DNA of 64,000 nucleotides from Nanobdellota archaeon (GTDB taxonomy: Archaea; Nanobdellota; Nanobdellia; Woesearchaeales; JBHPFW01), in contig JBHPFW010000006.1 in the NCBI GenBank assembly GCA_042571645.1, positions 4,131 through 68,130 on the forward strand, in the 5' to 3' direction. A program made the position numbers and the translations under genes. Shown one piece after another: positions 1,837 through 30,600 of the stretch. The notes under the pieces were generated by a model. That model made no database searches. It saw nothing but the letters and a program-made list of their open reading frames with translations, and had not been told where the DNA came from. Numbering within the stretch: the first letter of the stretch is position 1; each line of letters starts with the position of its first letter.

Positions 1837-1862
1837 CAAACTAATAGTCAAAAAGTCACAGA

Positions 1863-2017
1863 AGAACTCAGAAAACAAGATAAATACTTTAAATTAAGAA
1901 TAAGACCTTAAAATCACGATCATTAATTAAATCATTTTAAGTGGGGTTTAATATTCATTTGAAATCACACTTAAATGATATTTAAAATAAAATTAAGAAA
2001 ATCTTGTTCTGAGTTCT
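1863..2017. repeat. Nested imperfect inverted repeat (~155 nt)
   Basis: The outer arms AGAACTCAGAAAACAAGAT (1863-1881) and ATCTTGTTCTGAGTTCT (2001-2017) form 17 bp with a 2-nt bulge. The inner arms are ATCATTTTAAGTG (1931-1943) and CACTTAAATGAT (1968-1979). Confidence 0.5.
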
Positions 2018-5864: not shown

Positions 5865-6114
5865 TTTGAAAATCTTTATTGAAAATCTTTACTTAAAACT
5901 TTAAGAATTTTGCATTTTATATAAAAAGCTTTGGGCAGAGAAAAAACACACCAAAAATAGCTCTACTTAGTGTTTTGCAGGGTCTTAGGTCTTAATAATG
6001 ATAAAAAGCTATTGTAAACAATATTATGAATGAGCTGCTTCTTTGTTTGTATTTGTTTGTACTACTTGTTATTCGCAAACAAAATATTTAAACACCGCGT
6101 TCCAAGACAATTTT

Positions 6115-8333: not shown

Positions 8334-8885
8334 ATGAGTAATCTAGGCAAAAGTAGTCTTAAAAGTAGTGATTTTGTTAAAGAGGGAAGTAAAACAAAAG
8401 ACATTGAAGGTGTTTTTGATCTTCTTCTGAATCTTATGAAAGAAAAGGGCATGACTATGCAAGAACTTATTGCAAAGTATGAGGGTTCTCCAAAAGAAAT
8501 TTTTGTGCCATTATCAATATTCTCAACAAAACTAAGTCCTTCAGAATCTTTAAGTGTATATCTAAAAGAAGAACAAGATCTATCATACAGCGAAATTGGA
8601 GAACTGCTGAACAGAAATGAAAGAAGCATATGGACAAACTTCCACAATGCCAGAAAAAAAGCAAAAGAGAGATTACCTTTAGACAGCGAAATTTCTGCAC
8701 CATTAAGTATATTCAAAACAAGACAGCTAAGTATCTTTGAGAGCTTAATACTTTATCTGCGTGATACTTTGAAATTAAAGAACAGCAAAATAGCTCATGC
8801 TCTAAACAAACACACAAGTGTAACATATACTGTCTATAACAGAGCAAAACAAAAACTCGATTCAAAAAATAAAAAAATAAAATGA
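8334..8885 (+). CDS. Tandem-duplicated HTH protein (sigma-70 region 4 / LuxR-like), putative regulator at the head of the plus-strand surface operon
   Basis: There are two internal repeats. The first is VPLSIFSTKLSPSESLSVYLKEEQDLSYSEIGELLNRNERSIWTNFHNARKKAKE (nt 8505-8672). The second is APLSIFKTRQLSIFESLILYLRDTLKLKNSKIAHALNKHTSVTYTVYNRAKQKL (nt 8697-8858). The stop codon overlaps the next ATG (ATGA at 8882-8885). A TATA-like ATATTTATAAATAAA lies about 20 nt upstream. Confidence 0.6.
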   Translation: MSNLGKSSLKSSDFVKEGSKTKDIEGVFDLLLNLMKEKGMTMQELIAKYEGSPKEIFVPLSIFSTKLSPSESLSVYLKEEQDLSYSEIGELLNRNERSIWTNFHNARKKAKERLPLDSEISAPLSIFKTRQLSIFESLILYLRDTLKLKNSKIAHALNKHTSVTYTVYNRAKQKLDSKNKKIK

Positions 8886-11800
8886 AAGACAAGATAATGG
8901 TATTGATAGTGTTTGCAATCTTAATAGTTTTTGGTATGCTATTATCTAATTTAGGAAAACTTGCAATGACAGGTTATGTTGTATTTGAGCCAGATACTAT
9001 CGATGAACATACCGAAACTAATGTTGTTAATAATTATTCTGAAGAAATAATTGAAGATTTAGTAACTGAAGAGCTAGTAACTGATTTAGTAATTGAGGAC
9101 CCAGAAGAGCTAAATGAATCAATACCAAATAATCCCATACTAATTAATGAAACAATAAATCAAAGCAATAATCAGAGTGAAGAAACAGATGATGAAGAAA
9201 TAGGTGAAGAGATAGATGAAGTAATAGATGAACTTGATAATTATCTAGATGATTCAATAGATGAGCAAATCTTAAATGAATCATTAGATAAATCAGATTC
9301 TGATACAAACGAATCAGATTCTGGTACAAATGTGCCAGATTCAAACCAATCAACAATACCAAATCAATCAACAATAAATGAATCAAATCAGGATATTCCT
9401 GAGGATACAGTATATGTAAATTACACAGAAATTGATGACAGTAAAATTGATGTTATTATAACACTTAAACCAGAAAAAACAGAAGTTGAAAAAGAAGTAA
9501 TAGAAACTTTTGAATTTGAAGCAACAAAAGAAATAGCTCCAGAAACCCTTGAGCCAAAAAAAGTGAGAAAATGGTTAATATTATCTGAAGAATTACCACC
9601 TACAGAAGCAACATTTGAGCAAAAAGAAAAAATCCAGAAAGAAGTGCAGGAAAAAGTCCTTAAAGAGACACAAGAAAATATCAAAGAAGCTCAATCTGAC
9701 TTAGCAAACTCTCTGGACTCAGATATAAAAGAAAATTCAATAGAAATAGAACACAATTATACTTCTATCGGCTTGGTGCATGCTAAAGTTACACCTGAAG
9801 AACTTGAAAAATTAAATAATAATCCTGAGATAGAAAATATAGAAAAAAGCAAGACTTACAGTATTGTGCTTGATGCCAGCATACCTTATATTAATGCAGA
9901 TAGCGTATGGGGTACAAAAGTTAATGGAATTAATATTACCGGCGCAGGAGAAACAATCTGCATAATTGATACAGGAATTGATTACAGACATGATTCTTTG
10001 GGCAATTGCACACAAGCAGAATTTTTAGCTGGAGACTGCACAAAAGTTTTGAGTGGTTATGATTATGTAAATAATGATCCGAACCCAATGGATGATCATA
10101 GTCACGGCACTCATTGTGCTGGCATTGCTTCTTCCACACACACAACCTATAGGGGAGTTGCATTTGATGCTAATCTTGTTGCACTAAAGGCTTGTAATAG
10201 CGGCGGTGGCTGCGGTGACTCAGACATACTTGCAGGAATAGATTGGTGCATAACTAATGCATCAATCTTCAATATATCAGTTATCAGCATGAGTTTGGGT
10301 GATGATTCTTTCCATAATAGTTATTGCAGTGGAAGTATATTCAATACACCTGTAAGAACTGCAGTGGAAAATGGCATAACAGTTGCAATAGCAGCAGGAA
10401 ATGTTCCTGCAGGAGCAACAGGTGTTGCAGAACCTGCATGTGTAGAGAATGCCACAGTAGTTGGTGGCCTGAGAGATAGTGATAATGCAGTATTCTACAA
10501 GAGAGGTGCTTTAATGGATTTATTTGCACCAGGCATAGGCATTTATGCTCCTGTTTTGAATGAGGGTTTTGGAACAAAGTCAGGAACTTCTATGGCAACA
10601 CCTCATGTTGCAGGAGCTATTGCTGTAATGCAGCAATACAACAAACTTATTAATAATGCATCATTGGATCCTTATAATATTGAAGACTTGTTTGAGGAAA
10701 CTGGTGTAATGGTTTATGATTCTGGTTTAGGTTATTCAAAGCCAAGATTAGACTTGCAAGCAGCTATCGAAAGTGTTTTGGTAATAAACGAATCAGATAA
10801 TTCAACAGAAAACACTGATGCCAAGATTAAGTTCTCAAACACCACAGCATTTACAAATATAACAAAATGTGTTAATATCAAGAGAAATGCTGTTTCTGTA
10901 AATGCTAAAAAGTGCCCCGAATTAAATAAATCAGCCACTTTAACATTCAAATCCCAGATTTACAAAACAAATCCAGTAATTTTAATGGATGGCCAGATAT
11001 GCCCTGCTGAGATTTGCAGCTTTGTTTCCTATTCACAAAATAATGCCATATTTACAGTAGGTCACTTCACCAATTATTCTACAACTACAAATTCAAGATT
11101 AGAAATATGGGATGAGAATGATGTTTTGGGAGGAAATCAAAATAAAACAACTGGAGAAATAATAAGATTTTATGCAAACTACACAAATAAAACAAGCAAT
11201 AACCCAATTAATAATAATTCTGAGAATGGCAATTGTAATATAACAATTAACAGTACCCAATATGTAATGAGCTTTAATTCATCAGGACAACAATATTGGT
11301 CATATAGTAATATATTCAGTTCTTCTGCTAATTATTCTTGGAATGTGAGTTGTAATGCAACTGGTTATGAGCCATTAAATGTTTCTGATAATATCGAAGT
11401 AATAACCAACACACCTCCAAATCAGACTAAGCCAATATTAACCTCAACATTTGGCACAAACAGATCAAATGAAAATCTTACTGTGTATAATCAATCCACA
11501 AATGATGTTAATAATCAGGTTGTTAGCAATATAATTAATTGGTATGTTGATGGAGTAATTAATAATCAGCTTAAGAATCTGACAAGAATTGATTCAACAA
11601 ACATTTCAAGAGGGGAAGGCTGGCAAGCGTGTGTCACACCAAATGATGGTGTAGAGAATGGTACTACAAATTGTAGCAACAATATAACTGTTTTGAATTC
11701 TCCAGCAACCCAATCAACACCAATTCTTAACTCAAGCAATGGAACTAATACTCCAAATGAGAATCTGAGTGTTTATAATAAATCAACTTATGATGCTGAT

Positions 11801-12652
11801 GGAGATTCTGTAGATAATATAATTGATTGGTATGTAAATAATGCAGTAAGGCAGGAGTTCAAGAACTTCACCACTATTAACTCTAGTAATACTTCTTCAG
11901 GCCAGGATTGGAAAGCCTGCATAATTCCTTATGATGGCTATGAAAATGGCACAAGATTATGCAGCAACACAATTGCAATTCCATCAGAAAATAACAATGG
12001 TGGAAGTTCTGGCGGTGGAGGCGGTGGTGGCAGCAAAGAAACCTGTTTTGATGGAAAGAGAAATCAAGGTGAAACAGGAATAGACTGTGGTGGGATTTGT
12101 GCAGCATGCCCAAGTTGTTTTGACGGCAAACAAAATTGTCATGATAATAAATGCGAAGAAGGTGTTGATTGTGGGGGGCCGTGCGCTGCTAATTGTGCTC
12201 CTGCTCCAAGATGTGATGATGGCATAATGAATGGTTATGAAACAGGAATAGATTGCGGTGGGTATTGTGGGGCTTGTGAAGCTGAGATAAAAACAGAGCA
12301 AAGCATTGCAAAACCTCCTATTGTAAAAGAGACAAAAAAAGAACTTCCTCTTGGATTAACAGCCCAATCCGCAGAAGAGAAAGAAAAGAAGGGGTTATTG
12401 GAAGAATTAGAGGACATCAATATTGTTGGAAGAGCATTCCTTGCCAAGCAAGCTAATATGATAATGATGATTGTTATCATAGCTATGATACTGATACTGT
12501 CTTTGTTGTTTAGACCTATTTCCTATAGAAAACCTAGAGCAGCACCACTAGAGCAAAAAGAATTGCCCAAATCAAACAAATCAAAACTACAAAATATTAC
12601 TGAAACAGATAAAACAATCAAAGAATTAGACACTAGACTAAAGAAATTATAA
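8882..12652 (+). CDS. Membrane-anchored subtilisin-like (S8) serine protease fused to adhesin-type modules
   Basis: 1256 aa. From N to C: TM/signal, acidic low-complexity region, I9-like propeptide, S8 domain, Ig-like modules, two uninterrupted ~95-aa W-x-AC-x-TP-x-DG modules, poly-Gly, three Cys-rich repeats and a C-terminal TM (MIMMIVIIAMILILSLLF). Confidence 0.9.
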   Translation: MKDKIMVLIVFAILIVFGMLLSNLGKLAMTGYVVFEPDTIDEHTETNVVNNYSEEIIEDLVTEELVTDLVIEDPEELNESIPNNPILINETINQSNNQSEETDDEEIGEEIDEVIDELDNYLDDSIDEQILNESLDKSDSDTNESDSGTNVPDSNQSTIPNQSTINESNQDIPEDTVYVNYTEIDDSKIDVIITLKPEKTEVEKEVIETFEFEATKEIAPETLEPKKVRKWLILSEELPPTEATFEQKEKIQKEVQEKVLKETQENIKEAQSDLANSLDSDIKENSIEIEHNYTSIGLVHAKVTPEELEKLNNNPEIENIEKSKTYSIVLDASIPYINADSVWGTKVNGINITGAGETICIIDTGIDYRHDSLGNCTQAEFLAGDCTKVLSGYDYVNNDPNPMDDHSHGTHCAGIASSTHTTYRGVAFDANLVALKACNSGGGCGDSDILAGIDWCITNASIFNISVISMSLGDDSFHNSYCSGSIFNTPVRTAVENGITVAIAAGNVPAGATGVAEPACVENATVVGGLRDSDNAVFYKRGALMDLFAPGIGIYAPVLNEGFGTKSGTSMATPHVAGAIAVMQQYNKLINNASLDPYNIEDLFEETGVMVYDSGLGYSKPRLDLQAAIESVLVINESDNSTENTDAKIKFSNTTAFTNITKCVNIKRNAVSVNAKKCPELNKSATLTFKSQIYKTNPVILMDGQICPAEICSFVSYSQNNAIFTVGHFTNYSTTTNSRLEIWDENDVLGGNQNKTTGEIIRFYANYTNKTSNNPINNNSENGNCNITINSTQYVMSFNSSGQQYWSYSNIFSSSANYSWNVSCNATGYEPLNVSDNIEVITNTPPNQTKPILTSTFGTNRSNENLTVYNQSTNDVNNQVVSNIINWYVDGVINNQLKNLTRIDSTNISRGEGWQACVTPNDGVENGTTNCSNNITVLNSPATQSTPILNSSNGTNTPNENLSVYNKSTYDADGDSVDNIIDWYVNNAVRQEFKNFTTINSSNTSSGQDWKACIIPYDGYENGTRLCSNTIAIPSENNNGGSSGGGGGGGSKETCFDGKRNQGETGIDCGGICAACPSCFDGKQNCHDNKCEEGVDCGGPCAANCAPAPRCDDGIMNGYETGIDCGGYCGACEAEIKTEQSIAKPPIVKETKKELPLGLTAQSAEEKEKKGLLEELEDINIVGRAFLAKQANMIMMIVIIAMILILSLLFRPISYRKPRAAPLEQKELPKSNKSKLQNITETDKTIKELDTRLKKL
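9857..10780 (+). other. Peptidase S8 catalytic domain with an intact Asp/His/Ser triad
   Basis: Asp lies in ICIIDTGID (codon at 9968-9970), His in HSHGTHCAG (10103-10105) and Ser in SGTSMATPHVAG (10589-10591). All three codons are in frame with 8882. Confidence 0.85.
11413..11975 (+). repeat. Two uninterrupted copies of the ~95-aa module that is split by LamG elsewhere
   Basis: Copy 1 is PPNQTKPILTSTFGTNRSNENLTVYNQSTND..NIINWYVDGV..GEGWQACVTPNDGVENGTTNCSNNITV. Copy 2 is PATQSTPILNSSNGTNTPNENLSVYNKSTYD..NIIDWYVNN..GQDWKACIIPYDGYENGTRLCSNTIAI. Confidence 0.7.
12045..12277 (+). repeat. Cys-rich stalk: 3 x C-x-DG-x2-N-x2-E-x-G-x-DCGG-x-C-x2-C
   Basis: The sequence is CFDGKRNQGETGIDCGGICAAC / CFDGKQNCHDNKCEEGVDCGGPCAANC / CDDGIMNGYETGIDCGGYCGAC. 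It is preceded by GGSSGGGGGGGS and followed by a TM anchor. Confidence 0.7.
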
Positions 12653-12676: not shown

Positions 12677-15600
12677 ATGAAAGCAATGGAAGCCTATAAA
12701 ATAAGAGGATTATTAGTGTTGGCGATTTCAGTACTTATGGGTATAGTGCTTGCTAATCTGGGCAATCTTTCTATTACAGGTTATTCTACAGTAGAATTAA
12801 ACAATACGATTTATGTTTATTCAGATACTATTATGGATGAGGATTTCTATAACTCTGATTACTCTTATTACCATGTTATTATTGAGAAGGATAATGTAAA
12901 ATTAGATTGTAATGATCTTCCTTTGATTGGAAATGAAACTGGAATAGGGATTTATTCAAATAAAAACAATATAACATTAGAGAATTGTTTTGTTGTTAAT
13001 TATGAGTATGGCATTGTACTTACTGGTAATGATTCTAATCTTATTAACACCAGAGCAGAGAATAATTTATTTGTGGATATAATGTATATGGAAGTTGAGG
13101 AATTTGAAATGGAAAATGCTGTGGCAGACAATGCTTCTAATGAAACACTAACTGAATCAGAAGCTAATTTAACACAAGATCCATTAGCAGAACCAAATAT
13201 TACAGATCCAGTGTCAGAGAGTGAACCTACTCAAGAAAATATTTCTACATCTGGAATACAAGAAGATCCTCAACCTCCACAAGATCCAATTACAATATTA
13301 TCAGGTAATGCACCAACACATTCACAGCCAATATTAAACTCAACAAATGGCTTATTCCATTCATCTGAGAATTTAACAGTCTATAACCAATCAACAAATG
13401 ATGGCGAAGGAGATAATGTTACTAATTCAATCTTATGGCTCAGGAATAAAAGAAGTTTCCCTGCAACACATGTAGATATAAATTATGATAATGTTATATT
13501 TAGGACTCCATTTGAGAATTATACTGTAAGTACAGATACTTATAAGGATTATTCTGTAAGTGACAGTACTATTACAGTATCAAATACTGTATGGAATGCA
13601 ACTGGAGGTCATGATGGTTATGGGGCTTATAAATTTACAGGTACTACTGGTTATTTGAAAACTACTGCAGATATAGGTGAAGGAGAAGCCAGTCTTACTG
13701 TTTTGGTTTGGGTAAAACCATCTCCTTCTCCTGCGCACATTGGTGATTTTGTAACAAAAAGAAATGTATACTATACTTTGCAGAACATAAGTAATAATGT
13801 ATGGGTTTATTTATCTGGTCTTAGCTCTGCTTGGACTCGATCTTCCTCAACTTTAAGCACAACCAATTGGAATCATGTTGCGTGGACTAAATCTGGATCA
13901 ACATTAAGACTATACATAAACGGTCAAGAAGATAGTGTATCTCCAGTTACTTTAACTTCAAGTAATCCATTAGCAAGCGGTATTCTTCATCCCTTAACTA
14001 TCGGAAATGTCGTCCTGAATACTGGCGCTATTGATGCTGACAGAGGATTTGACGGTCATATCGATGATGTGATGATATTAGATGTGGCTTTATCTGCTGA
14101 TCAAATTAAAGCAATGTATGATAGAACAAGCAATATTATTCGTTCTGATGAGACTGAAGTTAGCGATACTTGGCAGGCATGCATCACTCCTAACGACGGT
14201 ACAAGTGATGGTGCTACTAATTGCAGTGATACAAAAACAATTCTTTTGAGCAATCCGCCAACCCATTCTCAGCCAATATTAAGTTCAACTTCAGGAAATA
14301 ATCTTTACTCAGATAACTTGACTGTTTATAATCAATCAACCATTGATATTAACGGAGATTCTGTCAGCAATATTATTAATTGGTATAGGAACGATACGTC
14401 TATAGCAGTATTGAATATGCCGTTTGATTCTGCTGATTCTGCAGGTTCTGGAAAAACAAAAGATTACAGCGGTTCTGGTAATAATGGAACTCTTGCAGGA
14501 CATACTGTCTGGACAAGTGACGGTTATCTAGGCGGGGCTTATTATTTTGATGGTACAAATGATTATATTGATTTTGGTAATGATCCTGATCTAAGTTTTG
14601 AGAGAACAGATCCATTTTCTATTTCTGCGTGGGTTAAAATAGATGATGTTTCTTCAGTAAGACTGATATTTTCAAAATTAGCTGGCCCTACAGCTTATCC
14701 AGGTTATCAGTTTTTTGTACACACAAACGGACAGATTTATTTTGATTTATTCCGTGATTCTTCAACAACTAAATACATCAGGGTTTATGAAACTAGCAAT
14801 GAAGGTGTAGCTGATGGTGGTTGGCATCAGGTTACTGCAACTTATGATGGTTCAAGCACTGCTGCTGGTGTTAAAATATATTTAGATGGCGATGCAGTGT
14901 CAACCACTGTTGGTCAGGATACACTAGATGGTTCAATGCTTAACTCTGTCAGTGCGTATATTGGAACTAGAAGCGACGGCAGCTATGATTACAAAGGATA
15001 TGTTGACGAGGTTAATGTGTTTAATAGGGAATTATCTCCTGAGCAAATCAATGCTTTATACAATAACAGAACAGACTTAATTGTTTCACAAGAAACAGAA
15101 GTTAGCGATATCTGGAAAGCCTGCATAACACCAAATGATGGCTTTGTTGATGGTGTAACTAATTGCAGTACTAGTCTGACTATTGTTTCAAACATACCCC
15201 CAACACATAATCAGCCAATATTGAATTCTACTCTGGGAACAAATTTAACAACAGAAAACCTTACAGTTTATAATCAATCTACCAGTGATTTAGAAGGAGA
15301 TGGGGTAAATAATTCAATTAGATGGTTAAGAAACAGCAGAAGTTATCCTGCTACTCCAGAAAGTGTTTCTTATACAAATATGGTACTTAATATGCCCTTT
15401 GAGAATTATACAGGTTTATCAGACAATTCCGCTGATCATTCATTATATGGTAATAATGGTACGGTTTATGGAAATCCAGTCTGGAATTCAACAGGAGGCC
15501 ATGATGGTTATGCAGCTTATGATTTAGACGGAACAGGAGACTATATTGAGATAGCTGATGATGCTTCGTTAGAATCAACACAAATATCTCTTGGTGCTTG

Positions 15601-18600
15601 GGTAAAAAGAGAAGGTACAATGGGAACAGGAGTATGGCATAGAAGAATAATCAGTAAAAACTATCAAACTACATTTGTAGATCCATTTGATAGCTATGCG
15701 CTCTTAGTAGATAATTCAGTGAATTATTATATTGGTTTTAACATTGGTTGGGGAACAGGTGGAGGAAAGTATACTACTTATTGGACATCAACACCTCTTC
15801 CAGACGGAGAATGGACTCACTTATTCATGACAGTAAATCAAACGCAAGTTAAGTTATATATGAATGGAAATCTACTGACAACACAGACTGCAGGAGGAAA
15901 TCCAATATATAATAATGGTCCGTTGAGAATTGGTGCTATGGATCCGACACATGCAAGTGAAAGATTCTTTAATGGAAAAATTGATGATGTCAGAATATAT
16001 GATTTAAGTTTAACAGCAGATCAAATAAAAGAAATTTATCAAAACAAATCAGGAGTTATACAGTTTAATGAAACCTCTATAGATGATGTATGGCAGGCCT
16101 GTATTACTCCTTATGATGCTTATGGCGCAGGTAGTGAAAATTGCAGTAATAATCTGACTGTTTTAGCTCCTATTCCGAATTATGCTCCTGTTGTTTCAGA
16201 TATTGTTTTGAATGCAACTGATCATCCTAGCAATACCACCAATGCTAATCTTACTGTGTATTATAATTTGTCTGATTTAAATGATGACAACATTACTAAA
16301 GTAATTAATTGGTATAGGAATGATTCATCAATTACTGTTTTGAACATGCCATTTGATTCTAATAACTCTGCAGGTACTGGTAAGACTAAGGATTATTCTG
16401 GTTATGAAAATAATGGTACAGAAACTGGGGGAGTCGCTTGGACAAGTCAAGGTTATATCTCAGGGGCTTATGATTTTGCTGGTGATAATGATTACATCCA
16501 AATTGCAGACGATGATATTTTAAGTTTTGGTGATACATTAACAGATCAACCATTAACCATTTCTGCTTGGGTAAATATGGATGCTGCTACTTTATTCCCT
16601 ATTGTAGCTAAGGACGCTTCGACTTCAAATGTAGAGTATGTTTTCGGAACATCTTCAGCAGACTATCTTGTTTTAACGTTATATGATTTAAATTCAGCTA
16701 ATAGAATCCAAGCTTATACTGCTACAGGTGTAATGACTCCTTATGAGGGCATTTGGACTCAGTTAGTTGCAGTATATGATGGTTTTGGTAATGAGAGCGG
16801 TATAAATTTGTATATCGATGGAGTCCTTCAAACAGGTTTGACTAGAGGGGAAGTCGGAACTTATGAAGCAATGCATAATACTAATGCTGCTTTGTTTATC
16901 GGAAAAAGAGAAACTCCCAACCAGCGATATGCAAATAGCAGGATTGATGATGTAAGAGTGTTTAATAGAGAATTATCCACCGAACAAATCAAAGCTTTAT
17001 ACAATAACCGTACTAATTTAATTGTTTCACAAGAAACTAATGTAAATGATATCTGGAAAGCCTGCATAACACCAAATGATGGCCAAGTTGATGGCAGTAC
17101 TAATTGCAGTAATAATCTCACAGTTTTAGTTGGTAGTAATCAAGCTCCAACTCAAACCCAGCCAATATTAAACAGCAGTGATGCCACAAACAAATCAGCT
17201 TCAAACTTAACAGTTTATACTAGTATTTTTGATCCTAATGGAGATAATACAACTGCAATTATTAATTGGTATAAAGATAGTAGTAGTATTTCTGTATTGA
17301 ATATGCCGTTTGAAGGTGGCAGTACTTCTGGCAGCTCGACAGGACCAACAAACGGCACAACAAAAGATTATTCGGGCTATGGAAATAATGGAACTGCAAT
17401 TGCAAACTCATCAAACAATGGACCTCAATGGAGTTCGTCATCAGGATATATTGGTGGTGCTTATACATTTGATGGAGTGGATGATTATATTGAAGTAAAT
17501 CATTCCTCAAGTTTAAACATAGAGAATGAAATCACTTTGTCTGCTTGGGTAAAATCTAATGAAGAAGGTTATGTTGTTGTTAAGGATCCTTCTGCAGAAC
17601 AACAAACAGCATATTATATTAATAAGTCAGATTGTGATTATATACCAACTTGGGATGATGGCACTTGCGTTGGTCAAACTTTAACAGAGCCGCAATTTTT
17701 GACAATTGGACAAAACACTTTAACATGTAATTACACAGATACTCTATTAAACAATGTAGAAGTTACATCAGTCACACTTTACGGGGCGCATAATGTGGTT
17801 TGTACAAACGGTGTCCAATACTATTGGAATGGAACTTTATTAGGAACATCTGTTGATAGTTCTACTGCTTGTAATTTTTGTCTGCCTAGTCAAGATTTAA
17901 ATGCGCCTTATTACCATAATTTCACTCTTACAAATCCTAATTATTCTATTGGCGGCATTAACACATTCTCATTTACAAATTTAGCAGGAGGAAATGGTTA
18001 TGCGGGATTCATCGGCGGTCATCACACTCCAGCGTTAGGTTTAAGTGGATATGAGATGTTTAAAGTAACAGTAAACTATACTGTTTCTGGAAAATATACT
18101 CCCTTCTCATTAAGCACAATTAATGGAGGAGAGTTCTTAATTGGTAATGATAATTACAGAGCAATAAGTTCAGGTAGTATTAATGATGGTAATTGGCATC
18201 ACATTGCAGCAACATATAATGGTTCAGAAATGAGACTTTATGTAGATGGAAAACTAAATGCAACAAATACATCTTTTTCAGGTTCACTCCCAACAAATAC
18301 TGATCCTGTTTGGATCGGCAGGAATTATGATCCTGAAAACTCTACAGGTTATTTCAATGGAACAATAGATGAAGTTCAAATATACCCTGCAGCATTATCA
18401 GCACAACAGATAAAAGCTTTATACAACAACAGAACAGATTTAATAGTAAGTCAGGAGACATCTGGAGGAGAAAAATGGCAGGCTTGTGTAACACCAAATG
18501 ACGGTCAAGTTGATGGCAGCGAGAATTGCAGTAATAGTCTTACTGTAAGGGAAGTTGAATTAACTATTTGGGATGATAATGATTTAGCAGGAGGCAATCA

Positions 18601-21600
18601 GAACAAAACAAGAGGAGAATTAATTTCATTCTATGCCAATTATACTGAGAATGGCGGTATAGGACCAATAAATAACTCTATTGGCTGGTGCAATTTAACA
18701 ATTAATACAACTCCTGATGGACCATATGAAATGAGTTATAATTCTACATCTGGTTTGTGGTATCATAACAGGTCATTTAACAATGCAACAAATTATCAAT
18801 GGAATGTAACCTGTAATTCAACAGGTTATGAACAACTTACTAAAACAGATACAATTACAGTATATCCTGACTGTGTCACACCAGAGGATGAATACCAGTT
18901 TGAAAGTAACTCTCTTGTTAATTTCTGCAGCGGGTCTTATTCATTGGGTGCTACTGGTTCTTATTACCAGTTCGCTTATAGTTTCTATCTAGACAACACA
19001 CACAGTAATATCACTTTTATTTGTGATGATACTATACTTAATGGTCCGGGTGCAGGAAGCTTTAATTTCGCTTTCCTTATAATGGGTTCTCAAAACATTT
19101 CAATTATTGGATGTAATTTCTCTAATTTTGTAATAGCTACAGGATTATTAAATAATTTTGATACAATAAATCTTTCAAATAATTATTTCTCTAATGTATA
19201 TTCAAGCATATTTATTGCAAAAGGGAGAAATTTCCATATACTTAACAATACCTTGAATGGTGGAGCTGGAATTACATTGCGTGATGAATTTGGGGGGCCT
19301 GGAAATAATAGTGGAGGAAGGATAATTGGAAACACTATGATGAGTCCTTCTTCATCCATGGGTGGTTTAGCAGCTGGTGTTGTTTTTGATCTGGATCAAG
19401 AACAAACACTAACTGAAACAAGTGACATATACATAGCAAATAATACCATAATTAATTCAGGTGGTTTTGGAATTTCTTTAATGCAGGCAGATTCTAGGTC
19501 AACAATTAATAACATCACCATATCTAATAATAATATTTCAAATCCTAGTTCATATGGTATTTATATTGAAAACGCTTCAAATGTAATAGTAGATAACAAT
19601 CTAATTTCAGGAGCAACCTATGAAAGCATATATTCTGTTGCAGAAAATTCTGTTAAGATAAGAAACAATCAAATATATAATAACAATAATCGCCATGCAA
19701 TATATATGGGTTCTTCTGTTGAGGATAAATATGGTGTTTTAAATGGAGGCAGGGATTTTGTTATTTCAGGAAATACAATAAACAACAGCGGAGGTACTGG
19801 CACAAGAAATTCTTATTTTGCTTCATTATCACCTATAAGATTTAATGGCTATGACTTTAATGGTAATGGGGCAGGAATGATTGTGTTTGGTCTTGGGTCA
19901 GAAAGAAGAAGGAATGTTTTTGCTGATAATACTCCTTTTGAAAATATACTTTATGGGGTTCGGGGAGATAATTTCACTTTATCTTTGATTTATGACAATG
20001 TATTACAAAAGAACATAACCTTTTTCTATGAAGATGGTTTTAATGAAGATATCGAAAATTGCGCAGATCTTAGAAATGAGATAGGATCTGTAAATGTTTA
20101 TTATTGCCGTGAAAATACATTGATCTCTAATGGAGCTACAAGCGATTATACTTTTGATTCTTCTATTTTCAATTCAAGTTTTAATGTTACGCCAGGTTAT
20201 ACTAATCCTCCATATTTAAGATATGAATCCTGGTCTTATAATGCATCTGCAATTGAGATAGACAGTAACACAAATGTAACAATCAGTGATAATGTCTTGG
20301 ATAGAAATGATTATGGTATAACAATCTCCAATTCAACTACTGTTAACATAAGGAATATTACTGGAACCACAGTCACATCAGCATCTTATTATGGTTCTAA
20401 TAGTCCAAGAATATATGATGGCCAGAAATATCAAGATGTTCCATTACAAGATGGTGTAGGTAATGGTACAATATTATTTGTAGATACTACTGAATACAAG
20501 GTATATGGGGCTAATGATAAAGTTGAAATGCCTTTGGTTGACGGAACATTTAATTTCTCAGTGTGTCTTATTAATGCATTGGACACTTATTTCATAACAG
20601 GTTATTTTTATCCTCAATTAAATAAGACTGAATGCGAGGTGTTTGTGAATAATAGTTGTGGAGGCTGTAATCCAGTAGCAGAATATGTTGAATTCAATGT
20701 GTTTACAGCTCAAGGAGCAGGAAATAATTATGTTTGGGCTGGCAATTCAAGCACTACCGCTGTTTCAGGAACATATTATACAGATCCTCCATACATAAAT
20801 GTTGTTATTGCCAATAATGTGAAAAATTACATATCAATAGAAGCTCTTAATGGAGGAACTATCCAGAACATTAATCTTGATAATCCAGATAATGAAAATA
20901 TTGATGTGAAATCATCTTCTGATCTGATATTCAAAGACATAACAATAAATTCCGGAGGAAAAGGAATTATAATTGATCCTTCAAGCAATATAACAATAAG
21001 AGACAGCACAATTAATAGCACTTCAGGAGAAGGAATACTAATTTTCAATAATACAAATGCAATAATATACAATAACACAATAACATATAATTCAAGAAAC
21101 GGCATAAATATTTCCCTTAATGGTTCTGCCACAATTACAGAAAACACAATATGCTATAATAATTTGTTTGGAATTTACAGTCTTGATTCTGTGCTAAACC
21201 CAGATTATCCTTCTTTGATGAGCCAGAACAACTTTACTTGTGCAGGAGATAATCTGCAGGATGCAAAGCTCAAAAAAGAATGGTATGTGCAAGCCAGGAC
21301 AATCGACTCATACAGCCAGAATCTTTCATCTGCTTCTGTTAATCTTTATGAACCATCAACAAATTCAACTCCAAAATATACTGAAACAACAGATGTCAAT
21401 GGCTTGACACCATTATATGACCTGATAGCAACACAATATATTATTAATAACACTGACAGCCAATTGAATTCCACACCTCATAGAATCTATACAACAAAAT
21501 CAGGTTTCCAGAATGAATTAACATGGACAGTAACAGAATCAAATACCACTAGAGGAGATAATGAAATAATTCTTCTGTTAGGAAATGCTGCACTAAGAAT

Positions 21601-24600
21601 CTGGGATGATAAAGATCCAAGAGCTGGCAGCCAGAATAAAGGATCTACTGACAATATTTACTTCTATGCAAACTACACCAACTCAACAAGCAAAATACCA
21701 ATAGATGATAATACAGATGGCGGCTGGTGTAATATAACTATTAGTGATAATCCAGCAGATTCTTTTGCTATGAGTTATAATTCTTCAAATGGGTTATGGA
21801 ATCACAACAAAACCTTTGGAGCTGTGGGTTCTTATTCATGGAATGTAACCTGTAATGCAACAAATTATGAGAGCTTATATGCCATTGAGGCTATTTATGT
21901 TAATGCATTACCAACTCACAGCAGGCCATTGCTTATAGCATCTGATTATCCTGCTAACTCAACATATGCTAATTTGACTGTCTATAACCAATCAACTCAG
22001 GACAATGATGTTGGTTATGTGGCTAATATAATTAATTGGTTCAGAAATGGAAACTCATTAAATGTTTTGAACATGCCTTTTGAAGGAGGCTCAACTTCAG
22101 GTAATTCATCAGAAAATGGCACAGCAAGGGATTATTCAAATTACACAAATAATGGAATAGTAGTTAATGCTGCATGGAATAGAACTGCAGGCTATAATAA
22201 TTTTGGTGCTTATGAGTTTGATGGAGCAGGAGATTATATTGAACTGCCTCATTCATCTAGCCTGGATCTTACAGATGAAATAACAATATCTGTTTGGGTA
22301 AAATCAAATTCAGAAGGTTATGTTGTTGTTAAGGATCCTTATGAAACAGGACAGGCAATATATTATATAGAAAATGAAAGCTGTTCAGGTTGGGACGATG
22401 AAGGGTGCAACTCATATAATCCATATACTTATGAAGGCTTTTTAGGAAATAGTTCAGGTAGCACTCTTAAATGCAATTATACTGATACACTCCCAACAGA
22501 TGTAACAATAGATAGTATAGAAGTACAAGGTGCTATGGCGGCAAATTGTGCTCCAAATAATCCTATTAAATGGTGGTGGGGAAACACACTGATCGGACAA
22601 TTTGATGATACTGACGGCAGATGCGGCTGCAATCCTGATCCGCCTGCTATTATGAATTTCAGCCTCACTAATCCATCATATGATATCGGAGGTGAAAATT
22701 TTGTATACTTAAACAACTCTGGTAATTTTGCTAGTATTTTAGGAGGTTCTTATGCAGGATATAGTACAGGACAAATACTAAAAGTAACTGTGAACTATAC
22801 TGGCGGCAAGATAGTGCCGTTCTCTTTGAGCACAAGAAATGGCGGGGAGTTCTTCCTAAGAAACAATTCCTTCAAAGTTATTTCTACTAACAGCATAAAT
22901 GATGGTGATTGGCATCACTTGGCTGCTACTTATAATGGTTCAGAAATGAGATTGTATGTAGATGGGAAATTAAATGCAACTAGCACATCTTATTCTGGCA
23001 ATTTGCCAACAAATTCTGATCCAGTATGGATTGGCAGGCATTTTGATCCTAGAAACTTAACTGGATTTTTCAATGGCACTTTAGATGAAGTACAGATATA
23101 CCCTATAGCCTTATCTGCAGAACAAATTAAAGCCGTATATAATGATGGAACTTATGTAATAGTAAGCCAAGAAACATATGGTGGAGATACATGGAAAGCC
23201 TGCATAACAATAAATGATGGCTATACAGATGGTGCTACTAATTGCAGCAATGAAGTAACAATAGAAAACATAGCTCCTAATTTTACATTTACTAATATAA
23301 CTCCAAGTCCTGCTTACGCAAATGACACATTATTTGTAAATATAACGCCTCTAGATGAAGACAGCAGCACAATTACTGTTTGGATTAAATGGTTTGTCAA
23401 TGGCATTTTGAAATTCTGGGAGAGATTGACAGGAATATTTTCTGGACAGACTGTCCAGGCTAATCTTTCAAGCACTTATTTCAATAAGAGTGATAATGTA
23501 ACTGCAGAAGTTACTGTGGGTGACAATGTAGATAATGCTACAGCTCAAAATACTTCCGCTCTGACTATCGGAAATCTTGCTCCGTCTATTTCAGCTATTG
23601 GAATAAATTCAAGCAATAACTTAAATACATCAGCTGATACAATAACAGGATATTTTGTTTATAGTGATGCTGATTCAGATCTTCAGCAAAGCACAGAAAC
23701 AAAATGGTATATTGACGATTCATATGACTCTTCTTTTGATAATATTTTCGATATTGGGCCTGGAAACTTTACTAATACTCAACAAATTATATTCTCTGCA
23801 AGAGTTTCTGATGGAACTGCTTGGAGTAATTGGGCTAATTCATCAACTCTGGCAATAAGGAATAGTGCTCCATTCCAGGATAATCCATTACTGATATCTA
23901 TATTCGGAACAAATTTGACTACTGAGAATTTATCTGTGCAAAACATTTCAACACAAGATTATGATGGTGATAATGTTGAGAATATAATTAATTGGTATCT
24001 GAATGGCACTTCACTCACAACATTAAACCTGCCATTTGCTTCAAACCATTCTGCTGGAACAAATAAAACAAGGGATTATTCTGGCTATGGATTTAATGGC
24101 ACTGTTTATGGTGCTAATTGGAATCCCGGCAGATCAGGCTATTATGAATTTGATGGTGTAGATGATTATATTGAAACAAATGTTTCAGCTTTGAATAGTT
24201 CGATCTTTAGTATCGAATTATGGGCCAAATTTAATGATTATGAAGACAGAAGGCCTTTATTTGCTAAAGCAACCGCTTCAGACGATGTTTTAGCTATAGG
24301 TACAGACATTTTTGACGGAAGTACTAATATAGGACTTGGAATAAATAATGGTGGGTGGGATTATGTGGAATCCCAAACAAATCCAGTGCTGGGGCAATGG
24401 TATCATATAGTTGGAGTGCAGAACTCAACCTCGAAATTAATATATATTGATGGGGAATTGGAAAATACAGAATCAAATGTAATTCTTCCTGCAGGAAACA
24501 CAATTTTTATAGGCAAAAGGCGTTTCGGAGGAGCAATTCCAATAAACGGTTCTATTGCTGCTGTAAGAATATACAATAATTCTTTAACATCTGCTCAAAT

Positions 24601-27600
24601 CAAAGCATTATACAACAACAGAACAGATATGATTGTTTCTGAACAGACTTCTGATGGAGATATCTGGCAAGCATGCATGACTCCTAATGATGGTAGCATT
24701 GATGGAACTGAAAAATGCAGTAATAATATACTTGTATTGCCTCAAATTGGTGAGCAGCCTGTTGATACAGGATTTGGCGGAGGAAATACCACAAACTTTG
24801 ATACTGTTCCAAATTTATCAGATGTGGATACTGTGGTATTGCATAATGATAGTTATATGAAGCTTAATTGGACTAGTTCAGGATTAAATGTTTCTGGAGC
24901 AAACTTTTCTGAGACAGTTATATTTGGCGAAGGATGGGTTAATATTAATTTATCCACAATTAGTACTACTTTAAATTCCTCAGCTACAATTGAGTTGTAT
25001 AACCTGCCATTTGAAGAAACACCAATTGTTTATATTGATGGTGTGTTATGCACACAAGATTGTGATATTATTGGTTATTCTGGAACTACCTTGATTTTCA
25101 ATGTTAGCCACTTTACAAATTACAGCACAGGACCAAATTCTCAGCTAATGATTTGGGATGATACAGATCCAGAAGGAGGCAGCCAAAGCAAGATAATAAA
25201 TGACAGCATATTCTTTATTGCTAACTATACTAATGTAACCTCTGGCAAGTACATTGACAATGTGTCAAACAATGGCTGGTGTAATATTAGTTTCAGTTAT
25301 GATCCTATAGGTCCATTTGAGATGATATTTAATTACACAGGCAATAATACCTGGGCATATAACAGATCATTCAATGACAGTAATACTTATAATTGGAATG
25401 TCTCGTGTAATGCTACAAATTATGAATTATTTGAATTATCAGATCAAGTATATATCACTCCATTAGAAAACAGACCCCCAACTCATTCCAAGCCAATAAT
25501 AAGTTCAACTAATGGCTTTAATAGAACTACAGACAATATAACTGTTTATAATCAATCCACAAATGATCCTGATAGAAATAATTTAACTAATATTGTTGAC
25601 TGGAGAAAAGATGGAGGTACCTTTGCAATACTTAATGCTCCATTTGATACTAACAGTTCTAATGTTGTGAGAGATTATTCTAATAATGAGTCTAATTTAT
25701 CAGCATCTGCAGGAGTTCAATGGACACCAAATGGCTATATTGGAGGAGGTTATTATTTTGATGATATTGGTAATAATGATTATCTTAATTATTCCTTGAA
25801 TAAATATGATTTTGGATTTAGTGGATCTGATCAAATGACTGTCATGGCGTGGGTTTATGCTGACAGATTAGGAGGTGAGACTCATTATATTGTTGAAAAT
25901 GATGAAAATTGGATCTTTTATGTTAATGCTGATCGTAAAGTAGTTTTAACATTGATTTCATCTGGAGGAAGTTACTGGAATACTTACAGATGTGACTCAC
26001 CACTAGTACAAACAGGTAGGTGGTATCATATTACCGGAGTAGTTATAGATTCAACAAAAACAGGAACACAAAATGCAATGAAAATTTATTTTGATGGGCA
26101 AGAATGCATAACACCTTTTAAAAATCCTAACACTGGGTGGCAAAACTTAGGTAGTAAAGGATTAGCAATAGGTGCTAGATCTTTTATTGGTCTTTATGGA
26201 CAAAACTCTTGGAACGGAACAATCGATGAATTCAAGATATTCCCAACTGCTCTGACTGAAGAACAGATAAAAGCAATAGCTCAAAACAAAACAGACACAA
26301 TTGTCTCTCAAGAAACCTCTGTTGGAGATAAATGGCAGGCTTGTGTAACACCAAATGATGGAGAATATGATGGTTCAACCAAGTGCACTAATAATTTATC
26401 TGTTGTGTTAAGTCATGCTCCGACTCATTCTGAGCCAGTTCTTAATTCTACTTCAGGAAATGGCCTAAGTAGAGATAATCTTACTGTCTATAATGTTTCA
26501 ACCATTGACATTGAGCCAGACAATATTACAAATATCATTAACTGGAAAAAAGATGGCAGTAGTATTACTGTGTTGAATATGCCATTTGATTCTCCAGATA
26601 GTGCAGGTTCTGGAAAGACTAAGGATTATTCTGACAATGAAAATAATGGAACAAACTATGGCAGTATTGTTTGGTCTCCTGATGGATATTATGGCGGAGG
26701 ATATATTTTCGATGGAACAGATGATTATATTTATGTACCTAATACTAATAGCTTGACATCATTCCCTATTGGATTGACAGTTAGTGTTTGGGTTAAACAA
26801 ACTGGCAGTGATACAGGAGGAATTGTGTTATCAAGATGGGGTGTTAGTGGTGTTGAATCTGGTTATGGTCTTCACAGTAATGATAATTGGTATATGGGTG
26901 ATGGAACAAATTGGGGTTTTATTTCTGCAGGAAGGCTTAGAGACAGCAATTGGCATCATTATGTTCTTGTTTGGGATACTTCAACCATGACAAGTTACAG
27001 AGATGCAACTTATGTTGATTCAACCAATGCAGCTGGTGCTGTATTCAATAATCCTGGCAATAGCAGATTGGTAATTGGTGATGATAACAGGATAGCAAAT
27101 CCCGGTGCAAATATATTTAGTGGTCAGATAGATGAAGTAAGGATTTACAACAAAACATTATCAATAGAACAGATCAATGCTTTATACAATAACAGAACAG
27201 ATTTAATAGTAAGCCAGGAAACTTCTGTTGGAGATACTTGGCTGGCTTGTGTAACACCAAATGATGGTTTGGTAGATGGTGCAGAAAACTGCAGTAATAC
27301 AGTTAATATTATACTAAGCAATCCTCCAACACATTCAAAGCCAATAATAAATTCAACATCAGGATATAATAGAATAGAAGACAATCTAACTGTTATTAAT
27401 CAATCAACTGCAGATATTGATGGAGATGCAGTTAGAAATATTGTTAATTGGTATAGAAATGATTCTTCTATAATGGTTCTTAATATGCCGTTTGATTCAA
27501 ACAATAGTGCAGGAAGTGGCAAGACAAAGGATTATTCTGGTTATGGAAATAATGGCACTATTAATGGAGCAACTTGGACATCTAGTGGTTATACAGGTGG

Positions 27601-30600
27601 AGGTTATGATTTTGATGGAACTGAAGATTATATTGAAATACCAAATGATGCAAGCATAGATTTTTCAAACACAGATCCCTTCTCAATATCTGCATGGGTA
27701 AAAACCACTCAATATAGCGGAATGTTTGTAGCTAAAATAGATGGTTCGCCTTTTACAGGTTATGAATTTTTAGTATATGCTGACCAGCTGTCTGTTTGGT
27801 TGATAAATAATTATGGCGGTGGTAATTATTTATTTGTTCAGGAAACAGGGACAGGAGCAGTAAATGATGGAAATTGGCATCATGTTACAATGACTTATAA
27901 TGGTTCAAGCTCTGCTTCAGGTGTTAAGTTATATGTTGATGGAAGCAAAATAACAACGACTACTGAGGTGGATAGTTTATCTGCTTCAATCTCAAGTACA
28001 ACTCCCGTGAGAATAGGAGAAAGAGGAGATAATGAGCTTGATTATAATGGATTAATAGACGAAGTACTGATCTACAACCATACATTAACACCACAACAAA
28101 TTAAAGCAGTATACAACAACCGCACAGACTTAATTGTTTCTAATGAGACTTATCTGAATGATATCTGGAAAGCCTGCATTACTCCAACTGATGGTTTTGT
28201 TGATGGTGCTACCAATTGCAGTGACTCTGTGACAGTAGTTGATAATTTCCCGCCAACTCATTCACAGCCAATCCTAAACTCAACATTAGGAACAAACAAA
28301 ACAGATGAAGATTTAACTGTTTATAATAGATCTACATCTGATTTAGACAATGACCCTGTTACTAATATTATTGATTGGTATGTAAATAGCATAAACCAGC
28401 CAAGTCTCAAGAACCAATGGACAATAAATTCAGCAACTACCAGCAAAGGCCAGAGTTGGTATGCGTGCATAACACCAAATGATGGAACAATTAATGGATC
28501 AATAAATTGCAGTAACACATTAACAATAGAAAATACTGGCCCTGGATATACATTCACCAATATAACACCAGAAACAGCATACACTAATGACACATTGTCT
28601 GTTAATGTAACACCAACAGATATTGATAGTGATACTTTGACAGTTTGGATTAAATGGTTTGTCAATGGTATACTCAAATTCTGGGAGAAAATCACAGGAA
28701 TAATCTCTGGCTCTATAGTACAGCTAAATCTCTCAAGCAGCAACTTCACCAAAGGCGATAATGTAACTGCAGAAGTTACAATAGGTGATGCTGATGTAAA
28801 TCTTACTCCAACAAATACTTCAACAATAAGTATATTGAATTCTCTGCCTACGCATCAATTGCCATTCCTTAATTCAACAACACTATTGAACAGAACAGAT
28901 GAAAACTTGACTGTTTACAACAGATCAACTACAGATCCAGATGGAGACGAAATAAAAAACATCATTAATTGGAAACTCAACTCTAACAGTTTTGCAGAAT
29001 TGAATCTTCCATTTGAAGGAGGCAGTAATTCCACATATACAAAAGATTATGCACAAGACACAACAATATTAGTAAATAGTGCAACTTGGAATGCAGCAGG
29101 AGGTTATGATAATAATGGCGGTTATGAATTTGATGGTGCAGATGATTACATTGCTTTAGATATGAACTATAGTTCTGCTGGTGAAATCTCTGAACTTACG
29201 GTTTGTGCTTGGTATAAAACAGAGTATGCAGGCCTTGAGTGGAATGCCAATGGTGCTTTAGTTGATTTTGATAATACTGAATATTATGGCTTATTTGTAA
29301 ATGGTGTTAATGGAAATATTGTCTTCAGAACAACAAGCTCTACAGGTTATTCTAATTCCACAGTTGGTGCAACAAATACAAATGACGGCAGCTGGCATTT
29401 TGCCTGTGGAGTATTTGACAGTTCAGAAGAATATGATAAGAAAGTTTATTATGATGGTGCGCTTGGCAGCCAGCAAAATAATTATCCAACTGGTGTAAAT
29501 CTCGGAACCGGTACAACAAGATTTGGTTTTATTGGAGACACTTCAGAAGCAGTTTCATTTGACGGCATTAAAGGCAGCAAATATTTCAACGGCTCAATCG
29601 ATGAAGTAATGATTTATCACAAAGCTTTGTCTGCTGAGCAAATAAAAACTTTATACAACAGCAGAACTGATTTAATAGTATCTCAGGAAACTGCTGCTTA
29701 TGATGTATGGCAATCATGCATAACACCAAATGATGGCACAGCAGACAGCACAACATTATGCAGTAATGAAATAACTGTATGGGATATTCCTCCTGAAATC
29801 CATAATGTAACTATGAACTCAACTGACCATTTGAACAGAACAAATGCAACATTAAATGGATATTTTGATTATTATGAGCCATCAGGAGCATTGCAGCAGG
29901 AAAATGAAACTAAATGGTATAAGAATAATGCAGAGGTTTCTGCTTTAGCTAATAAAACAATCATCAGTCCAAGCAACACAACAAAAGGAGAAATATGGAA
30001 GTTCGGTGCAAGAGTTTATGATGGAACATCATGGAGTACATGGGATAATTCCTCGGAGTTGACAATTAATAATGCACTCCCGACTCAATCTTCACCATTG
30101 CTAAGTTCAAGCTCTGGAACAAACACTCCAACTGAGAACTTGACAGTTTATAATCAAAGCACTATTGATATTGATGGAGACACAGTAACAAATTATATTG
30201 ATTGGTATCTTGATGGAGTTTATAATTCAACCTTTGATGATAACAATACAATAAACTCTAACTATACAATACTTGGCCAAATTTGGAAAGCCTGCATAAC
30301 CCCGTATGATGGAACAATAAACGGAACAAAATTATGCAGTGCAAATTTAACAATAATTCCTCCTGCTCCTGCTCGTGTTGGTGGAGCTGCCGGTGGTGGT
30401 GGAGCTCCACCTATACCAGAATCTTGTTATGATGGTGTACAAAATAATGGAGAATCTGGAGTAGATTGTGGAGGAAAATGTCCAAGATGCCCATCATGTT
30501 CTGATGGAAAGATGAATTGTCATGACGACAAATGTGAAGAAGGCACAGACTGTGGAGGTCCGTGTGCTGTTGGTTGTGGACCAGCACCAAGATGTAATGA

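Follow-up and report, generated by a model that had tools for sequence, protein, structure and literature searches.

A giant open reading frame (ORF) in a contig of a Nanobdellota archaeon (GenBank assembly GCA_042571645.1, contig JBHPFW010000006.1, positions 4,131 to 68,130 of the forward strand; this 64,000-nucleotide stretch is referred to here as the window) encodes a protein in which domains are nested three levels deep. The protein contains 11 LamG modules (a lectin-like, concanavalin-A-like fold), all of them lodged in an outer domain that we call the bracket, and in two of these modules, 5 and 6, the LamG domain is itself interrupted by a six-cysteine domain, which we call the guest. 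Our results indicate that the guest belongs to an autonomous domain family, that its LamG hosts form a subfamily in which one fixed loop is a hot spot for insertion, and that guests may have been exchanged between hosts. The reading that we favor, and hold with moderate confidence, is that this bracket-LamG-guest nest is part of an adhesin in which the guest would be the ligand-binding head, exchanged between hosts.

The conserved ends of the LamG sequence ([MLTA]PF[DEA] ... YNNRT) served to set the limits of the 11 modules, which were then aligned with MAFFT. Module 5 is 379 amino acids long (aa 1543-1921) and module 6 is 361 (aa 3133-3493), while the other nine range from 200 to 224. The excess in modules 5 and 6 is a single contiguous block that lies at the same point in both, between '..SAWVKSN.EGYVVVKDP' (ITLSAWVKSNEEGYVVVKDP) and 'PFSLST.NGGEF' (PFSLSTINGGEF). 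A first-pass annotation of the window had proposed that inserts interrupt the LamG domains of these two modules at 17590-18100 and about 22340-22815. The alignment places one extra block in each, and the coordinates, which correspond to aa 1638-1808 and aa 3222-3380, proved accurate; we used a profile of the guest family to refine the domain limits. When compared with the nine plain LamGs, the block aligned to no normal LamG loop, as the plain modules have a short variable segment at this point. These data support the view that the block is an insertion and no normal LamG loop. The two guest copies are 40-42% identical (41% over an alignment of 176 columns) and share six invariant cysteines, so that the conserved cysteines of the first-pass annotation were borne out. 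Both copies reproduce its motifs F.LTNP.Y.IGG.N and KVTVNYT exactly. A third motif, L.CNYTDTL....V.S....GA....C, is present, but with a trivial slip in the spacing V.S, the conserved columns being V...S.

The sequences flanking the guest behave as complementary halves of one LamG domain. The hosts of modules 5 and 6 scored 75.4 and 77.6 bits on Laminin_G_3 (PF13385; cut-off 27.6), each in two stretches, and Pfam reported no family within the insert of either module. A plain-LamG profile of 221 positions, built from the nine uninterrupted modules, split on module 6 into positions 1-93 (aa 3133-3226) and 121-220 (aa 3401-3492), with nothing between. On L007, a relative described below, the same profile split into positions 1-94 and 96-221, and because of this split we conclude that the host keeps all of its residues at insertion. 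When the guest was deleted from module 5, a PDB search aligned the remainder end to end (residues 17-210 of 214, E 3.7e-12) with 4qvs_A, the solved single LamG-type domain of an S-layer protein, placing the junction in a short loop. AlphaFold2, given a 71-row alignment, modeled the whole of module 5 with a predicted local distance difference test score (pLDDT) of 84 and a predicted TM-score (pTM) of 0.68, and 10-residue blocks of both LamG halves were mostly at pLDDT 91-98. In a Foldseek search with this model, pentraxin and LamG domains ranked on top (probability 1.0). Together, these results suggest, indirectly, one sandwich shared by the two LamG halves, as the first-pass annotation had assumed in treating them as one LamG.

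To define the outer level, we joined the flanks of all 11 LamGs into a bracket profile of 96 positions. The bracket, of about 95 amino acids, occurs uninterrupted in the giant protein at aa 5191-5285 (97.5 bits), 5799-5894 (95.5 bits), and 5706-5798 (20.8 bits). Split copies surround all 11 LamGs, with the break at profile positions ~53-57. Since the bracket was matched both intact and split, the order bracket, LamG, guest holds at the sequence level. Thus, with complementary LamG halves inside it, the three-level nest of the first-pass annotation stands, and the architecture can be written A1-B1-C-B2-A2, with the guest in a LamG loop and the LamG in a bracket loop.

We searched for the guest outside these modules. 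A word-indexed homology search with only the insert as query returned no match. By contrast, HMMER, run exhaustively over 1.84 billion representative proteins with a profile of the two copies, recovered independent relatives, and the family as a whole is rare, with about ten relatives in this set. Eight proteins had E values of 0.001 or lower, including the giant protein itself, P0001 (7.6e-14), P0122 (6.5e-12), P0123 (3.2e-09), P0124 (8.2e-09), and P0127 (9.1e-04); the repeat-rich P0125 and P0126 were also recovered and are regarded as spurious. Because the two-copy profile finds independent relatives with E values of 7.6e-14 to 8.2e-09, the similarity of copies 1 and 2 is, on this profile evidence, far beyond chance. 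A scan of the window with the guest-family profile revealed no guest beyond copies 1 and 2.

Several relatives carry the guest outside any LamG. In P0123 (1,917 amino acids), which has no LamG, the guest domain (aa 26-172) lies directly behind the signal peptide. In the small proteins P0124 and P0127 it follows an N-terminal hydrophobic leader, and P0128, a further relative from an additional search, also lies outside any LamG. A GTDB scan identified L004, on a contig binned as Methanosarcinales, as one open frame of 2,005 codons with the guest domain at aa 1203-1344. Here the guest is in line behind a segment that looks immunoglobulin-like, and a separate plain LamG lies ~290 amino acids downstream. 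L004 scored 151 bits on an 8-sequence guest profile, although it was left out of building that profile. Using an 8-sequence alignment, AlphaFold2 modeled the guest alone with pLDDT 79 and pTM 0.80, as ten strands, with pLDDT below 50 in two loops; the model begins and ends with a strand (E2-8 and E152-162). As copies exist outside any LamG (L004, P0123, P0124, P0127, and P0128) and the guest is predicted to fold alone, we conclude that it is an autonomous, mobile, independently folding domain family, a putative β-sandwich of ~150-165 amino acids.

Further features of the relatives were also observed. P0127 and P0128 (L002 4014-4631 and L003 8001-8789), which stand farthest from the rest of the family, are small, and P0127 is hydrophobic at both ends. 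As the contigs L002 and L003 carry bacterial-looking genes (RND efflux, FtsX, and restriction-modification), the guest family may not be confined to archaea. P0122 reads as a β-helix-like repeat region followed by the N-terminal part of a LamG with the six-cysteine guest (aa 574-760). No recognizable LamG C-terminal motifs were seen past 'VPYALGT', and Pfam reported no family for the whole of this protein.

We characterized the guest fold using the model of the guest alone. Foldseek against the PDB ranked the carbohydrate-binding domains of BcsB best (E 1.5e-4, TM-score by query [TMq] 0.51, probability 1.0), and other matches were a GH2 N-terminal sugar-binding domain, Xyn30D with CBM35, a PA14-containing β-glucosidase, the C-terminal module of a rhamnogalacturonan lyase, and MiXBM, a xylan-binding module. 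Across the PDB matches, TMq ranged from 0.29 to 0.51, with E values of 1.5e-4 or weaker. Against a viral library, the model matched jelly rolls of phage tail fibers and host-specificity proteins. These matches are weak evidence for a galactose-binding-domain-like jelly roll, and for nothing more specific. The guest resembles the galactose-binding and carbohydrate-binding module (CBM) jelly rolls (BcsB, GH2 N-terminal, CBM35, PA14, and F5/8 type C) in its predicted all-β sandwich and similar size, and they are its best structural matches. It has no detectable sequence relationship to these families, and its six-cysteine pattern and the motifs CNYTDTL, C.C, LTNP.Y.IGG.N, and KVTVNYT are its own. 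An hhalign comparison of the guest family with the F5/8C-type guest of P0004 (see below) likewise found no relationship.

The only curated profile with any signal on the guest was NCBIfam NF058597 (choice-of-anchor Z repeat, CoaZ_rpt_PGGG), which aligned residues 57-126 of guest copy 1 with positions 21-87 of 88 (E 6e-5). This match was sub-threshold, at 23 bits (21 in the context of the whole module) for a cut-off of 30, and was limited to one of eight members with partial coverage; we therefore rejected membership. A stray Pfam match to Neisseria_TspB (E 0.043) was obtained for one of the eight guest members. Across the family, cysteines were lost in pairs, with C4 and C5 absent from P0123, and C1 and C3 absent from P0127 and P0128. 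Because the losses come in pairs, the disulfides of the guest are probably C1-C3, C2-C6, and C4-C5. The guest appears to represent a rare and undescribed six-cysteine jelly-roll family.

The host LamGs of modules 5 and 6 also have relatives. A search with the whole of module 5 gave proteins in which the C-terminal half of the LamG is 65-73% identical and is preceded by other sequence, and a metagenome scan with an alignment of this half identified ten loci with the LSTxNGGEF motif. All ten contain a guest. The relatives derive from independent metagenomes (Logan, JGI, ENA, and GTDB). P0001 and L009 (158 bits) carry the same cysteine guest at the host loop, while the guests of other hosts differ. 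That of L007 is an unrelated domain of 160 amino acids; L008 has two split LamGs with guests of ~285 and ~350 amino acids (the latter a propeller-like repeat with a weak GH130 match); L010 contains a fibrinogen-like sequence (weak match); L011 and L012 carry another cysteine-rich domain; and L013, L014, and L016 contain Gly-rich sequence (aa ~380-680 in L013 and L014). In P0004, a NedA-like F5/8-type-C match (26.1 bits, below the cut-off of 27.8) lies directly upstream of the host C-terminal half and ends ~25 residues before '..GKTNVPYSLSTMNGGEFLI'. The guests other than the six-cysteine domain span 160-350 amino acids, and Pfam reported for seven of them only a GH130-like match (E 1e-5) and Fibrinogen_C (E 0.011). 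Gly-rich sequence recurs elsewhere in the protein set, as the C terminus of P0001 (aa 561-620) matches the ALK/LTK glycine-rich domain at 24.7 bits.

The order in L006 is a LamG N-terminal half ('..GYVIVKED'), a frameshift, a choice-of-anchor-J/InhA-MAM-like domain, a distant relative of the cysteine guest (17 bits, detected only with the HMMER filters off), and '..KDVPFSLSTINGGEFLI'. The frameshift, of one base at ~1040-1080, coincides exactly with the junction of host and guest; the gene as called terminates in 'GYVIVKEDTSCNIL*', and the +1 frame continues 'PPATFYDNMESGMDGW'. It reflects either an assembly error or a decaying gene.

In every guest-bearing host, the junction residues are conserved on both sides of the guest (..GYVVVKDP, guest, ..(K)xxVP[FY][SA]LST.NGGEF..). 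Host domains resemble the LamG/Laminin_G_3 domains of other DPANN surface proteins in that they score on PF13385 and lie in a giant sequon-rich protein. They differ from ordinary LamGs, including the nine in the same protein, in that the junction motifs are conserved and a guest is always seen, while ordinary LamGs are uninterrupted. By these sequence criteria, the VVKDP/VPFSLST.NGGEF LamGs are a distinct subfamily and an insertion hot spot, with a guest in every relative recovered. The hot spot appears to be undescribed.

We compared the similarities of hosts and guests. Between P0001 and L009, the guests are 64% identical and the C-terminal halves of the hosts 56%, yet the nearest match to the P0001 host is, at 67%, the host of L010, whose guest is unrelated. 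For the guest of P0122, which is nested, the greatest similarity is to the in-line copies of L004 and P0124 (47-49%) rather than to other nested guests. When module 5 is compared with module 6, identity is 63% and 73% in the two host parts and 42% in the guest. At the upstream junction, 20 codons of mostly host sequence (aa 1625-1644; window 17549-17608 versus 22295-22354) show 82% nucleotide identity between modules 5 and 6, and third positions of identical codons there are 86% identical. Inside the guest, nucleotide identity falls to 39-60% in 20-codon windows. The identity at the junction could reflect host gene conversion or a homology arm. Because the similarities of hosts and guests disagree, the sequences suggest that guests have been exchanged between hosts as cassettes.

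A mechanism that would accommodate these data begins with an adhesin of a DPANN (Nanoarchaeota) archaeon that would be extracellular and heavily N-glycosylated. In this adhesin, the LamG would act as a rigid pedestal on which the guest is displayed as a ligand-binding head, with three disulfides (C1-C3, C2-C6, and C4-C5) stabilizing the guest outside the cell. Since its weak fold matches are jelly rolls of the carbohydrate-binding type, the ligand is predicted most likely to be a glycan. The two guest-bearing LamGs bracket the β-helix and may position it on the target surface. Recombination in or near the conserved junctions would swap guests and so diversify binding specificity.

The position of the insertion may also be informative. 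When aligned to LNS2 of neurexin-1α, the host junction falls at 'GKSAD|YVNLAL', a loop that we take to carry the Ca2+-ligand Asp equivalent to D137 of neurexin-1β. D137 itself coordinates Ca2+ where neurexin meets neuroligin (PMC2570956). If this equivalence is right, the location of the junction in the LNS2 loop would place the guest on the canonical binding rim of the LamG fold, and the guest would project from the rim that holds the Ca2+/ligand site of LNS/LG and pentraxin domains. A more far-reaching proposal, which we make only tentatively and consider rather unlikely as a whole, is that the VVKDP/VPFSLST.NGGEF LamG is a dedicated display scaffold whose junctions are recombination arms that swap unrelated heads between giant adhesin genes of the DPANN type, the heads being the six-cysteine domain and the F5/8C-, MAM/choice-of-anchor-J-, fibrinogen-, and propeller-like and Gly-rich modules, among others.

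Other explanations of the block differ in how well they fit these data. Could it be no more than an expanded, fast-evolving LamG loop of this paralogous pair, without an independent domain? It matches no Pfam family or PDB sequence, and at 42% identity it is less conserved between modules 5 and 6 than its flanks (63-73%), as a fast-evolving loop would be. Nevertheless, the same family occurs outside LamG, behind a signal peptide in P0123, P0124, and P0127 and in line in L004; the guest is predicted to fold alone (pTM 0.80); and in close relatives of the host this loop contains unrelated sequences. The copies in L004 and P0123 are not fragments of split LamGs. As the stand-alone copies contradict it, we rejected this explanation, which we consider very improbable. 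We assign a slighter chance still to an artefact or selfish element, that is, an assembly chimera, an intein, or an in-frame mobile element. The L006 frameshift at the host/guest junction counts in its favor, as does P0122, in which no C-terminal LamG motifs are visible behind the guest and no Pfam family is found, but the two copies are in frame within one 18.9-kb ORF, and the same architecture recurs in independent metagenomes. No overlapping ORF of at least 100 amino acids is present on either strand at the blocks, and Pfam detected no Hint/intein or transposase family in the two window copies or in any of the eight guest members. With these family scans, the independent metagenomes, and the two in-frame copies, we rejected the intein, mobile-element, and assembly-artefact explanations.

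A more serious competitor, although one that we consider unlikely, is that the guest is a protein-binding or structural module (a spacer, a rigidifier, or a glycosylation platform) in a LamG loop that merely tolerates insertions, with no role in specificity. The fold of the guest matches generic jelly rolls with TM-scores of at most 0.51, some of the other guests in this loop, being Gly-rich or propeller-like, are not obvious lectins, and the guest contains conserved sequons (CNYTDTL, VNYT, and NFT/NFS) in a protein whose overall sequon content is twice that expected, all of which would suit a structural role. This explanation sits less well with the junctions: hosts whose guests are unrelated share strict conservation on either side of the insertion, which looks like a specialized display site rather than random tolerance. 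It must also contend with the alignment of the site to the LNS ligand-rim loop, an equivalence that is in part our assumption, and with the F5/8 type C, MAM/choice-of-anchor-J, and fibrinogen-like guests, which, although all sub-threshold, are classic binding modules.

The adhesin with an exchangeable ligand-binding head remains our preferred explanation, and several of our own results weigh against it. The matches of the guest fold are weak (TM 0.3-0.5, E ~1e-4) and concern a generic jelly roll common to many non-lectin domains. For the guest sequence, Pfam gave no match at E ≤1 with single copies and no usable match at E ≤10 with eight members; a PDB profile search gave only E values of at least 0.2 (RsgI5 0.21, cGAS 2.4); and no CBM family was matched. 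The geometry of the single sandwich comes from indirect results (alignment, pLDDT, and Foldseek ranking), and the Foldseek alignments of the whole module have a root-mean-square deviation of ~20 Å and a TM-score by target (TMt) of at most 0.49. The incongruence between hosts and guests was read from identity matrices spanning ~108 and ~150 columns, with neither trees nor support values behind them. The greater similarity of the module 5 and 6 hosts could result from faster evolution of the guest or from gene conversion of the host, and the counts at synonymous sites are too low to tell gene conversion and guest swapping apart. Finally, no member of the host subfamily with an empty site was present among the relatives recovered.

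The giant protein is identical to NCBI MFC1691007.1 (exact-sequence look-up), annotated as 'LamG-like jellyroll fold domain-containing protein [Nanoarchaeota archaeon]' and encoded on a 76-kb contig. Pfam matched Laminin_G_3 11 times in the ORF (5 + 6 stretches), together with a Beta_helix region whose best stretch (aa 2707-2837) lies between the two guests, so that the copies do flank the β-helix region as the first-pass annotation had stated. The G+C content of the window is ~34%. The ORF product contains 258 N-X-S/T sequons, compared to 128.5 expected from composition, and since this is about twice the expectation, it points to heavy N-glycosylation. Three short cysteine-rich repeats (C.DG..N..E.G.DCGG.C; window 30425-30660, aa 5917-5994) precede a hydrophobic C-terminal region (~30854-31400) with at least three membrane-like segments (aa ~6060, ~6160, and ~6223); Pfam reported no family for the repeats or the hydrophobic C terminus. 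The sequon excess, the cysteine-rich repeats, and the hydrophobic segments would therefore fit a surface protein that is glycosylated and anchored in the membrane. In DPANN archaea, LamG-rich surface proteins have been predicted to mediate attachment to hosts (PMC10266531). The features of the ORF are collected in Table 1.

Table 1. Positions of the giant ORF and of the nested domains of modules 5 and 6 in the window
Feature	Window position	Amino acids	Strand	Remarks
Giant ORF	12677..31567	6,296 aa	+	N-terminal hydrophobic segment, 11 bracket-LamG modules, β-helix region, C-terminal Cys-rich repeats and hydrophobic segments
Module 5 outer bracket, N-terminal part	17138..17302	1488-1542	+	Bracket profile positions 1-56
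Module 5 host LamG, N-terminal part	17303..17599	1543-1641	+	Ends in ITLSAWVKSNEEGYVVVKDP
Guest copy 1	17600..18094	1642-1806 (165 aa)	+	Six-Cys, predicted all-β, 'TAYYINK' to 'KVTVNYT'; profile match aa 1642-1805, 153 bits
Module 5 host LamG, C-terminal part	18095..18439	1807-1921	+	Starts (Y)TPFSLSTINGGEFLI
Module 5 outer bracket, C-terminal part	18422..18550	1916-1958	+	LIVSQET..W.AC.TPNDG..C; bracket profile positions 53-95
Best Beta_helix (PF13229) stretch	20795..21187	2707-2837	+	Pfam; between the two guest-bearing modules
Module 6 outer bracket, N-terminal part	21902..22072	3076-3132	+	Bracket profile
Module 6 host LamG, N-terminal part	22073..22348	3133-3224	+	Plain-LamG profile positions 1-93 at aa 3133-3226
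Guest copy 2	22349..22810	3225-3378 (154 aa)	+	Profile match aa 3226-3378, 192 bits
Module 6 host LamG, C-terminal part	22811..23155	3379-3493	+	Plain-LamG profile positions 121-220 at aa 3401-3492
Module 6 outer bracket, C-terminal part	23150..23266	3492-3530	+	Bracket profile

A domain of ~110 amino acids ('IWDD.D..GG.QNK' to 'W.V.CN.T.YE') occurs in three copies in the giant ORF, at window 18566-~18900, 21599-~21900, and 25151-~25480 (aa ~1964, ~2975, and ~4159). Two of the three sit just inside the guest-bearing modules, on either side of the β-helix, in a roughly mirror-symmetric layout. Neighboring genes in the window encode a RIO1 kinase, a Toprim-domain protein, a topoisomerase, a NurA-domain protein, and, directly upstream of the giant ORF, an S8 subtilase. 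The subtilase, with an I9 inhibitor propeptide, is 1,256 amino acids long (window 8882-12652, + strand) and stops 25 bases before the giant ORF. The subtilase and the adjacent giant adhesin recall the nanohaloarchaeal SPEARE proteins, for which a protease component was once proposed (PMC10266531). The window contains three further very large ORFs, at 32930-43033 (+), 46517-49648 (-), and 50950-58152 (-), of 3,367, 1,043, and 2,400 amino acids, from which the guest domain is absent in the family-profile scan of the window. Scans of the window for Rfam families and tRNAs found none.

Nesting depth in itself is not new, because nested insertions have been documented in other proteins, such as NdhH, and reach six levels in a cyanobacterial RNA polymerase (Protein Sci 2026, PMC13114784). 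As in the nested insertions of that ECOD-based survey, the protein described here has a domain within a domain within a third, a guest smaller than its host, and host halves that would make up one fold. Unlike the surveyed nests, it involves a LamG host, three putative β-sandwich levels, a predicted extracellular archaeal adhesin, and one loop that accepts many unrelated guests. The words concanavalin, laminin, galactose-binding, and jelly are absent from the main text of the survey (PMC13114784). A second parallel is the exchange of receptor-binding tips in phages, which likewise combines conserved scaffold junctions around interchangeable heads with incongruent host and guest similarities; the matches of the guest model in the viral library, namely jelly rolls of tail fibers and host-specificity proteins, extend the likeness. 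In contrast to phage tips, the putative head sits inside a loop of a globular domain and is not a terminal fusion, the protein is a cellular (archaeal) one, and exchange is read from identity matrices alone.

Episymbiotic DPANN archaea depend on attachment to specific hosts, and giant surface proteins are prime candidates for recognition. To our knowledge, almost nothing is known of which parts of these proteins confer specificity. The six-cysteine domain and the LamG loop with its variable guests provide concrete pieces for the study of ligand binding. A natural β-sandwich scaffold in which a single fixed loop accommodates guests of 150-350 residues, three levels deep, is also relevant to protein evolution and design. 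If the more tentative display-scaffold proposal is correct, the scaffold would be a cellular counterpart of the exchange of phage receptor-binding tips, setting the host range of the symbiont.

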